DNA of 64,000 nucleotides from Carcharhinus longimanus (Eukaryota): NCBI GenBank assembly GCA_030264375.1, contig JASCQW010000137.1, positions 25,749,264 through 25,813,263 on the forward strand. Direction: 5' to 3'. This document shows positions 10,167 to 60,888 of the stretch, piece after piece. The notes under the pieces were generated by a model. It was not told the origin of the DNA, made no database searches, and was given only the letters and a program-made list of their open reading frames with translations. The position numbers were made by a program, and so were the translations under genes. How positions within the stretch are numbered: position 1 is the stretch's first letter; every line of letters begins with the position of its first letter.

Positions 10167-11118
10167 GGGCAGGATTCTCATTGGTAGGTGCTGATCCTGC
10201 CCTCAGGATGAAAACCATGATGTGAAGATGTCGGCATTGAACTAAGGTAAACACAGTAAGAAGTCTCACAATACCAGGTTAAAGTCCAACAGGTTTATTT
10301 GGTAGCGAAAGCCGCAAAGGGGACCGCTTTTGGACCGCTTGCTGCTCCTTCGTCAGGTGAGTGGGATTTCAGTTCACTTGATTTCAGGTAATCAGGTCTT
10401 AATTAAGCAGAGTTGCTGAGCAGAGACTGATAGCCAAGTTCCGCACACACAAGGATGGCTTCAACCAGGATCTTGGGTTCATGTCGCACTATCTGTAACC
10501 GCCACGACTTGTCTGGGCTTGCAAAATCTCACTAACTGTCCTGGCTGGGGACAATATACATCTCTTTAACCTGTGTTTAACCCTCTCTCCACTCACATTG
10601 TCTGTACCTTTAAGACTTGATTGCCTGTAAAGATTCGCATTCCAACCATTATTTTGTAAATTGAGTTTGTGTCTTTATATGCCCTGTATGTGAACTGAAA
10701 TCCCACTTACCTGATGAAGATGCAGCGAGCACTCCAAAAGCTAGTGGCTTTTGCTACCAAATAAACCTGTTGGACTTCAACCTGATGTTCTTACTTCGGA
10801 TGAAATGCAGGCTGGGAACACAAAATGCTCGCAGCAGCACCCTGAGGGAGAGTTTGAAGGAGATGGCAGAGGGTGGGCTCTGGAGGCCAGACGGCCAATC
10901 GGAGTCCATCCAACACAGAAAGACCAGCAGCCCCCATTGTCAGAGGTGGTCACAGCTGGAGTAGGCAAGGCACTGTCACGGTTGTGAATGTTTATTGGCG
11001 TAATGCCTTCCCAACTGAATGGAGTCACCAGGTCGGGTGGCTGTTCGGCCTATTGCCAAGAGCCACCACAGTCTCATGGCTCGACAAGTAACCCAGTCGC
11101 CTTCTGGAAAATCCAGCC
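10167..11118. mobile_element. Harbinger-like MITE interrupted by a Penelope-like insertion
   Basis: TIR-like ends gggcaggattctc / gaaaatccagcc; the sequence is continuous across the duplicated ggatgaaa site. Confidence 0.45.
10218..10797 (+). mobile_element. 5'-truncated Penelope-like element (PLE) with inverted pseudo-LTRs
   Basis: 10409-10498 encodes RVAEQRLIAKFRTHKDGFNQDLGFMSHYL*, typical of the end of a PLE GIY-YIG ORF. Flanked by inverted arms with degenerate hammerhead cores; TSD-like ggatgaaaacca/ggatgaaatgca. Confidence 0.8.
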
Positions 11119-26805: not shown

Positions 26806-27040
26806 AAGTAAAATACTACAGATGCTGAAAATCTGAAATAAAAATAGAAAATACTAGAAATAGTCAGCAGATCTGGCAACATTGGTTTATGACTCGCCTG
26901 ATGAAGGAGCAGTGCTCTGAAAGCTTGTGATTTCAAATAAACCTTCTGGACTTTGGTCTGATGTTGTGAGACTTCTAACATTGACTCACTTTCTCTCTAA
27001 ACCAATGTTTTGAGTCTGGGTGACTCTTCTTCAGAGCTTC
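26806..27040. mobile_element. Two nested PLE-derived terminal-repeat fragments with hammerhead cores
   Basis: + strand CTGATGA-aggagcagtgctct-GAAAGCTT at 26898-26926, inside a different repeat whose - strand reads CTGAAGA-agagtcacccagactc-AAAAC. Confidence 0.65.
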
Positions 27041-37778: not shown

Positions 37779-38020
37779 TGATGTGGAGGTGCCAGCGTTG
37801 GACTGAGGTGAGCATAGTAAGAAGTCTCACAACACTAGGTTAAAGTCCAACAGGTTTATTTGGTAGCACAAGCTTTTGGGGTGCTGCCCCTTCATCAGGT
37901 GAGTAAATACTTCACACATAGTGAATACCTCACTCACCTGATGAAGGAGCAGTGCTCTGAAAGCTCATGCTACCAAATAAACTGTTTGCACTTTCACCTG
38001 GTGTGAAACTTCTTACTGCA
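37779..38020. mobile_element. Palindromic PLE-derived element with hammerhead cores
   Basis: Inverted arms of ~100 bp around a ~25 bp spacer; + core CTGATGA...GAAA at 37938-37962. Confidence 0.8.
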
Positions 38021-54891: not shown

Positions 54892-54956
54892 TATATTTCT
54901 GTCTGTATTTTTATTAGTCAGCAGCTTTCGGAGTGACCTTTTGTTAACTGAAGATT

Positions 54957-55159
54957 GTAAGAAGTCTCACAACACCAGGTTAAAGTCCAACAGGTTTATT
55001 TGGAATCACAAGCTTTCAGAGCGCTGTTCCTTCATCAGGTGAGTGAGGGAGCAGTGCTCCGAAAGCTCGTGATTCCAAATAAATCAGTTGGACTTTAACC
55101 TGGTGTTGTGAAACTTCTGACTGTGCACACCCCAGTCCAAAGCCAGCATCTCCACATCA
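54957..55159. mobile_element. Palindromic PLE-derived element with a perfect 12-bp TSD
   Basis: taactgaagatt at 54945-54956 and 55160-55171; - strand hammerhead core CTGATGA-aggaacagcgctct-GAAAGCTT. Confidence 0.85.
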
Positions 55160-55839
55160 TAACTGAAGATTATAACATTTAAGGTTACAAAACATACCAA
55201 GGGTTGATACATTCGATCCTGCCTTAGGCCAATGGCAAAACTCTATTGGGAGAATGTAAACACTGGTCAGTTCAATGGGCAGAGTGAACACAGCCCATCG
55301 GGAGCAGACATCAAGGGTTAGATCCACGAAGCTGAAATTCTTCATTGGCTTCAAAGGGAAAGGGTCCCAGGAGCCCTGGTTAGCTCTGTCCTGCTGGGAT
55401 CAAAGAGGCTGGGAGCATCATTTCCTTGGTGCAGTTGGGGAGATTGGGGCGAGGGGAAGGCCAGAAGCAGCTATTGGAAGGAATTTGGCTAAGAAGCTGG
55501 GACCATGCCTGTATTTAGATGCTGGAATTTAGCCTGGTCAACACAGTGGGGTATAATCTTGGTAGGAAGTCCAGTTGGAAAAGGAGACCAAGAAGGCTGG
55601 ATCTGGGAGCAGATTTCAGTGAGATCTAGCATTATGTGTCTTTTAGGGAAATGTACCCAAAGAATTTGGATGGAGTAGAACTTCTGTCGGCCAAGGATCA
55701 GACTAGCTCTTTGAAAGAGAGGAACAGCAACACTTTGTGAGCAAGAGAGAATATATATATAGAATTTATAGAATATTTGTAAGTCATGGTGATTGTTAAG
55801 GTCTTTGATTTGACTTATTATTGTTACATATATTAGTAT

Positions 55840-60671: not shown

Positions 60672-60888
60672 TGATGTGGAGAAGCCGGTGTTGGACTGGG
60701 GTGGGCACAGTAAGAAGTCTCACATTATCAGGTTAAAGCCCAACAGGTTTATTTGGGATCACAAGCTTTCAGAGCGCTCCTCCTTCATCAGGTGAGTGAA
60801 GGAGCAGTGATGAAAGAGCAGCATTCTGAAAGCTCTTGATTCCTAATAAACCTGTTGGACTTTAACCTGGTGTTGTGAGACCTCTCGC
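60672..60888. mobile_element. Palindromic PLE-derived element
   Basis: Same tgatgtggag..ttggactggggt extension and inverted arms; TSD-like tatttgcatt/tattttcatt. Confidence 0.8.

Follow-up and report, generated by a model that had tools for sequence, protein, structure and literature searches.

What kind of element leaves behind a palindrome of some two hundred base pairs that holds a ribozyme motif in one arm and sits between two exact copies of its target? The insert at positions 54957–55159 of the window (the whole 64,000-nucleotide stretch of Carcharhinus longimanus DNA analysed here) could itself be a mobile unit, MITE-like or retrozyme-like, or the by-product of another element's insertion. 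We consider it probable that two hammerhead-bearing ends of a Penelope-like element (PLE) were joined head to head in a single insertion, leaving a dead-end product built from short cDNAs that are likely to have run off near the 5′ start of the RNA. The insert is 203 bp long and is flanked by an exact 12-bp target-site duplication (TSD), TAACTGAAGATT, with its left copy at 54945–54956 and its right copy at 55160–55171 on the plus strand. The likeness continues past these bases (15 of 16 positions match), and a 12-mer match at the insert ends has a chance probability of about 4e-5 with 21 × 21 offsets allowed. Two inverted arms of 78 nt each (54957–55034 and 55044–55121) are 88% complementary, a 38-nt extension (55122–55159) follows on the right side only, and the insert is overlapped by no ORF of at least 120 aa. 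A previous sequence-only reading had described just this arrangement of two inverted arms, a one-sided extension, no ORF and an exact 12-bp TSD, and all of it stands. As RNA the palindrome is predicted to fold into a single hairpin at −127 kcal/mol (z −17), which 0 of 200 shuffles equalled.

Family positions are given below in a 426-column profile of the element's end, in which the hammerhead core lies at 300, the predicted ribozyme cut after 328 or 335, AATAAA at 345–350, and sites 1 and 2, where the outer ends fall, at 388 and 426. The tail-less arm (54957–55050, minus strand) runs inward from site 1 to about 288–293, spanning family positions 288–388, and reaches the 5′-end hot spot just before the hammerhead; its AATAAA, presumably a polyadenylation signal, is at 54995–55000 (minus strand). 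The tailed arm, which extends to site 1 at 55043–55121 (plus strand) and has its own AATAAA at 55078–55083 (plus strand), starts within the hammerhead core at about family position 304, and therefore keeps stem II, GAAA and AGCU but has no CUGANGA. The arms meet head to head at 55043–55050, where about 8 nt fit either of them as microhomology (overlap 8). Beyond site 1 the tailed arm continues into the 38-nt PLE ‘tail’ (55122–55159, plus strand), whose last base, at site 2, coincides with the A that opens the start codon of the parent ORF. Site 1 lies between the halves of a short inverted repeat (family 354–361 with 403–410; window 55087–55094 with 55134–55140), a candidate protein-binding stem that pairs in predicted folds, with a z of −1.8 that is not significant. 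The antisense strand of the element carries splice-donor-like motifs exactly at site 1 (A|GTAAGA, window 54957–54962, plus strand) and at the hammerhead edge (CAG|GTGAGT, window 55039–55044, plus strand); these may be chance, or cryptic donors in antisense intronic copies.

The ribozyme motif occupies 55006–55042 on the minus strand, where CUGAUGA (55038–55032) and GAAA (55017–55014) form the core and U at 55010 takes position H17, so that the predicted cut falls between 55010 and 55009. An Rfam scan of the whole window, which is uninformative for minimal hammerheads, gave 0 matches at E ≤ 1, and the assignment as a minimal type I hammerhead therefore relies on reading the motif against the account in PMC4209133, its activity being a prediction. 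The core motifs proposed earlier for this strand were found at 55042–55006, but stem I comprises 4 bp (UCAC/GUGA) instead of the 3 bp (cac:gtg) then suggested, and the palindrome that stands in place of stem III is AGCU (A15.1 to U16.1) instead of AAGCTT. Present besides the core are an extra A after A9, between positions 9 and 10.1, a palindromic 15.2–16.2 and an H17 other than G. The metazoan PLE hammerheads, as PMC4209133 describes them, share the core, the extra base between 9 and 10.1 and the palindromic 15.2–16.2 with the shark family, and also G10.1–C11.1, a short stem I and pairs on opposite strands. Unlike those, the 55006–55042 motif shows damage and is trapped within a hairpin: its stem II has G10.1–U11.1 and one A–C mismatch where G10.1–C11.1 and an intact stem belong. 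Among 54 arms with a core, H17 is T in 22, C in 18, A in 14 and G in 0 (the C/T division partly reflects CpG decay), and 12 of the 144 family arms spanning the motif have an intact hammerhead by our own criteria. Forming the hammerhead within the palindrome would cost about 38 kcal/mol, as the hairpin must open. The ribozyme is best viewed as a passenger, predicted not to fold in the 54957–55159 copy. Two forms of it occur, one longer by 7 nt immediately past the cut site (family 328–334); in the longer form a small hairpin could arise at this point, in competition with stem I.

To trace the parent of the arms, the window and 40 unselected stretches of 10 kb each were examined. The longer copies there extend past the 5′ side of the arm, first through a 3′ UTR and then into an ORF for reverse transcriptase (RT) and endonuclease (EN). 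Pfam RVT_1 falls on all three ORF pieces (3/3), above the cut-off in one (locus L127, E 8e-8) and just below it in two, and the ORF is 51% identical over 95% to an RT protein of 881 aa. Among 24 relatives, 22 have RT or PLE-type Pfam sets and three have GIY-YIG; two carry shark names. The family's own decayed ORF pieces gave no Pfam GIY-YIG match; a NVVYLI...YIGET motif, together with conserved C/H residues, can be aligned with one relative (P0004) that bears PF01541, and this alignment covers the EN motifs. At locus L121 the last base of the tail is seen to be the A that begins the ORF's ATG, in 32 exact genomic matches the tail runs on into the ATG and ORF, and a 2.4-kb insertion (L055) has the layout of the 54957–55159 copy with RT/EN sequence inside. 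No intact full-length ORF was present in 20 stretches fetched from 150 scored matches, where the longest gap-free frame is 498 aa; apparent longer open frames were runs of N and were rejected. A PDB search returned four weak matches (E 0.7–0.9). Judged by these alignments the parent is an endonuclease-positive (EN+) PLE of the same genome, with RT and GIY-YIG-type functions in one ORF, and a CX4CxxC linker at residue 290 of the L127 frame makes it Neptune-like, since PMC8557442 assigns a CX2-5CxxC linker before GIY-YIG to Neptune, shared with Nematis. The insertions accordingly combine a PLE-type RT and GIY-YIG-type motifs in the same ORF with a hammerhead-bearing pLTR, an inverted 5′-truncated copy, a one-sided tail and a TSD. 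The suspected Penelope-like origin is borne out.

The family is very large, as had also been surmised: a 28-nt tail pattern has 14,504 exact matches genome-wide, and 50 clusters in 80 unselected stretches (800 kb) extrapolate to about 1.7e5 loci of all shapes per genome. Contigs of three other organisms contain both of these outer ends as well, in the form of loose ends. The window itself holds five family loci, four inverted and one solo, where at least four copies had been counted. Apart from the insert described above they are a longer inverted copy at 10218–10789, one arm of which includes the 3′ UTR together with the final part of the endonuclease region; a solo tail-less arm at 26892–26979 (plus strand) that starts at the hot-spot A with a non-templated G before it; an inverted copy at 37779–38018 with both arms reaching the hot spot and 23 unassigned nt at its centre; and an inverted copy at 60672–60885 with a different centre. 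A decayed 31-nt piece just left of the TSD (54903–54933) resembles the antisense hammerhead/AATAAA region, is 71% complementary to the right arm and is possibly an older family fragment.

With such numbers the layout can be counted. The 30 best BLAST copies were excluded from all counts, having been chosen by likeness to the 54957–55159 copy. The 90 tail-anchored loci comprise 39 clean inverted copies, 6 inverted with a gap, 14 solo, 29 beside gaps and 2 unscored, and 14 of the 53 gap-free copies have no inverted partner. Inverted copies keep one layout across sizes of 77 bp to 2.4 kb, the long ones holding RT/EN sequence; those in the tail-anchored set measure 77–541 bp, with one further at 1,181 bp, and 28 of 47 unselected inverted copies fall within 150–260 bp. 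Comparison of the arm junctions, which the sequence-only reading had put forward as a check, finds that the pairs forming the centres differ in 65 of 67 inverted copies (8 of 75 pooled were dropped as unresolved) and repeat in 2. The two outer ends are fixed, 38 nt apart, and one tailed end is paired with one tail-less end in 32 of 36 copies, three having no tail and one having two (p 9e-7 against independent ends); these 36 classifiable pairs are the 53 listed minus 17 with gaps or eroded ends, from sets not selected by tail. A TSD is present in 36 of the 67 inverted copies, as against 0 of 268 shuffled pairs, and none lies above threshold in the other 31. The table of TSD lengths that had been called for shows a mode of 13 bp and 12–14 bp in 22 of 36, although these lengths may include 1–3 bases that also fit the element ends; all 36 differ in sequence. 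Arms within one insertion are 86.0% alike (permuted pairs: mean 82.6%, maximum 84.7% of 500), and a subfamily base is common to both arms (20 C/C, 15 A/A, 0 C/A). The differing centres, fixed outer ends and shared arm bases mean that the palindrome is rebuilt at each insertion rather than spreading as a unit, and that it is neither a MITE nor a retrozyme.

This layout is in miniature the published arrangement of inverted pLTR, tail and TSD in EN+ PLEs, given for Pen2a_Av in PMC3846280 and as a general scheme in PMC8557442, and the ribozyme is likewise published. With those insertions the family shares the head-to-head inverted end, a one-sided tail of 30–40 bp, a short TSD, TATA- and Inr-like pLTR motifs and assembly gaps at its loci. 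It differs from Pen2a_Av, as described, in that the halves of the shark stub are cut to about 90–120 nt and have no ORF, and in a copy number near 1e5, which permits counting; its TSDs of 12–14 bp compare with 8–10 bp in the rotifer examples and with lengths called ‘variable’ in PMC8557442.

Formation of such an insertion can be pictured as follows. A staggered cut of about 12 nt would free two 3′ ends. One of them would use site 1 for priming and its counterpart would use site 2, the AUG; both sites would lie within the 5′ leader of a capped transcript, about 90–95 and 125–135 nt from its start. Both cDNAs would soon run off the 5′ end of the RNA and, given these short distances, yield a run-off stub of 200–230 bp, or less after trimming. 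Their ends would be joined by microhomology (8 nt in the 54957–55159 copy) or by short patched-in sequence, and long ORF-bearing copies would result from priming at the same sites in a downstream repeat of a tandem or read-through RNA. In LINE-1 twin priming each of the two cDNAs is copied from a separate part of the RNA; unlike these, the cDNAs of the shark family overlap, which gives a palindrome. Inversion from two primers at one target and an untemplated G are shared with LINE-1 as reported in PMC4859970. Directly after the tail, 51 of 67 copies have T and 32 have TG, matching the rest of AUG, and site 2 thus spreads over a few bases. Most copies that reach the ATG (L281–L310) stop 35–121 nt into the ORF, 24 of 30 having an ORF match of at most 121 nt, which suggests rare further start sites beyond site 2.

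The closest biochemical precedent is the lizard PLE Poseidon PAc of Anolis carolinensis, for which PMC11167929 reports that RT starts at two internal sites, that both strands are cut and that a dimer is predicted. Shared with the shark family are the two start sites, which lie just 3′ of the hammerhead and delimit the tail, the cutting and extension of both DNA strands, and the lack of reads at the ribozyme cut site in that report. The PAc ORF, in contrast, starts in hammerhead stem II and its sites lie inside the ORF, whereas the shark site 2 is the start codon; and in vitro no strand difference in start site was reported for PAc, whereas the shark genomic copies pair the two sites (32 of 36). 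We would give an even chance to the fuller proposal that a ‘double strong-stop’ is the commonest product, in which a dimer would cut with a 12–13 nt stagger, each end would use one site, and both cDNAs would run off the cap and leave a G. Were it true, some 1e5 fossils would map the promoter, reveal that in vivo each end primes at one site, and identify the template as RNA that the hammerhead has left uncleaved rather than its cleavage product.

The inner ends of the arms bear on this template. In a survey of 233 arms not chosen by 5′ extent, 51 of them censored by gaps, 49 of the 109 arms at risk end at 290–299 (0.45), with the mode at A294, and the rate is about 0.06 per 10 nt at 310–369, ribozyme cut site included. 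Truncation at that cut site was rejected because no excess of ends occurs there among the 109 arms, and a cluster of arm starts at 353–362 was rejected as mostly assembly gaps. About 30 nt upstream of the hot spot, at 262–268, lies a TATA-like T(T/A)TATAT; this is the usual spacing between a TATA box and its start, and the context of the hot spot is initiator-like. Two of five copies with more than 1 kb of ORF sequence begin at 294 and 296, and the 30 hot-spot arms that lack a partner have mostly unrelated DNA upstream. Immediately before A294 the templated C stands in 8,389 genomic matches; among 2,065 with another base there, 1,239 have G, as do 10 of 13 solo arms, against a background of 27%; read-through copies have no G there (35 C, 2 T), and the 54957–55159 copy has the templated C. 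The excess of G is not unique to A294: among 100 listed starts at T296 there are 35 G, 15 A and 50 T, many of the G copied from the partner arm, and G is found in solos at 296 (3 of 9) and 298 (4 of 5) and at some starts at 297–299. One count of spaced partners gave G in only 2 of 7, and control rows at 304 and 308, swamped by subfamily variants, were left unused. Folding of the 5′ leader gives z −0.6 to −1.8, no significant structure. Together the pile-up at the hammerhead edge, the TATA-like spacing and the G suggest run-off at a capped RNA start, although the control for the G is not clean. An untemplated 5′ G is read as a cap in LINE-1 and SVA (PMC4859970), and the rotifer pLTR carries TATA and Inr-like motifs (PMC3846280); since the D. 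virilis Penelope is described as having a TATA-less internal promoter (PMC2377424), a TATA-driven start would not be general to PLEs.

The alternative that survives best is a possible, though doubtful, fold-back in which the site-1 cDNA stops, folds and is copied back as the mirror arm while a short cDNA from site 2 anneals and supplies the tail; self-priming has been proposed for PLE palindromes (PMC3846280). It would account for the subfamily bases common to both arms and for the near-symmetry of centres off the hot spot, where the arms end within 21 nt of each other in 17 of 28 pairs (null 6.6) and the longer arm is the tail-less one in 15 of the 17. It also fits the higher share of G before A294 on tail-less arms, 16 of 24 non-C, compared with 5 of 10 on tailed ones. 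Those five tailed arms starting at G-A294 nevertheless speak against it, as do the 11 of 67 copies in which the tailed arm outreaches its partner on the 5′ side by more than 20 nt, which would need an RNA-templated cDNA of its own. Many centres, moreover, hold 8–40 extra nt and are not a plain loop, and an arm-length difference of the same sign would result if two polymerases followed one another along a single RNA. The extra nucleotides seem to be copied from nearby (L223, L239, L271; window 37905–37935). Patches of this kind resemble polymerase-theta-type repair.

We regard it as unlikely that longer palindromes lost their tips after insertion, by cruciform or hairpin repair, in which case the junctions would say little about the insertion step. 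Near-symmetric centres would follow, long palindromes are unstable, and arms about 14% diverged indicate that the copies are old. Erosion, however, cannot explain the solo arms, which show the hot spot and the G with no palindrome at all, and a 15-to-1 one-sided bias is unexpected from symmetric trimming. Shorter copies, furthermore, have the more alike arms (rho −0.48, n = 37), a correlation confounded by the arm region covered.

Priming off a capped start, as we favour it, would not be needed to explain the 5′-end pile-up if a 3′ splice site lay at the hammerhead edge, as in the Drosophila Penelope, or if structure stopped the RT there, both of which we judge quite improbable. According to PMC4209133 a D. 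virilis intron does end at the 5′ end of helix I, and the G before the arm end could be the last base of an exon. Against this, the 30 partner-less hot-spot arms share no short upstream exon, save for one local tandem and a few pairs, and the read-through copies have C before A294 and no conserved AG. A structural stall would be expected at the other edge, as the RT meets the hammerhead from its 3′ side.

That the palindrome is a non-autonomous unit, retrozyme-like or MITE-like, which is transcribed, cleaves itself and is re-inserted whole, we hold to be highly improbable: the modal size and the two repeated junction pairs favour it, but the hot spot gives the modal size without any such unit, and the 65 distinct centres, the RT/EN sequence in long copies, the absence of any hammerhead core from 14 of 38 tail-anchored palindromes, the 38 kcal/mol needed to form the ribozyme, the occurrence of the one variant tested on both arm types and the tandem direct repeats of true retrozymes (bioRxiv 10.64898/2026.07.22.740005) all stand against it. 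The variant, present in the left arm of the 54957–55159 copy and seemingly confined to left arms among the 30 best BLAST copies, was rejected as an arm-specific marker: of 30 cases 15 were tail-less, 13 tailed and 2 unclassified (1,013 vs 10,778 genome-wide). Non-LTR retrozymes as portrayed in that preprint are likewise non-coding, carry a type I hammerhead and derive from PLE pLTRs; they are a repeated unit of tandem direct repeats, whereas the shark stub is a one-off, single inverted pair with a variable centre. Nor do the stubs have the fixed unit, the TIRs flush to a superfamily TSD or the transposase kin of a MITE, and the earlier doubt about a DNA transposon proves justified by the asymmetric tail, the variable centre and size and the RT/EN parent. 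One locus (L085:651–1130) holds three tandem direct units of hammerhead-region sequence with related upstream DNA, the nearest to a retrozyme-like array among the copies examined.

Searches of a library of mostly open-access main texts turned up no paper that treats this family, counts how its ends pair or describes a cap-like G in PLEs. The origin of the inverted ends and one-sided tail of PLEs is called undefined in PMC8557442, and the in vitro PAc system as presented in PMC11167929 shows two start sites, not finished insertions. Finished insertions supply countable rules, namely one start site per end, a near-fixed stagger of 12–13 bp, 5′ ends at the hammerhead edge with none in excess at the cut site, and a possible cap signature. 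Repeat libraries should file such palindromes as PLE stubs, not as MITEs. Young family copies coincide with assembly gaps: gap contact occurs at 29 of the 90 tail loci, young copies are under-sampled, and near-identical, apparently young tail ends (L060, L066, L068, L069, L073, L083, L098) almost always abut an N gap on their inner side. Young palindromes likely break the assembly and hide recent activity. Finally, two annotated shark proteins (P0020 and P0023) contain a piece of the family ORF at 70–82% identity and are probably exonised or mis-annotated PLE sequence.
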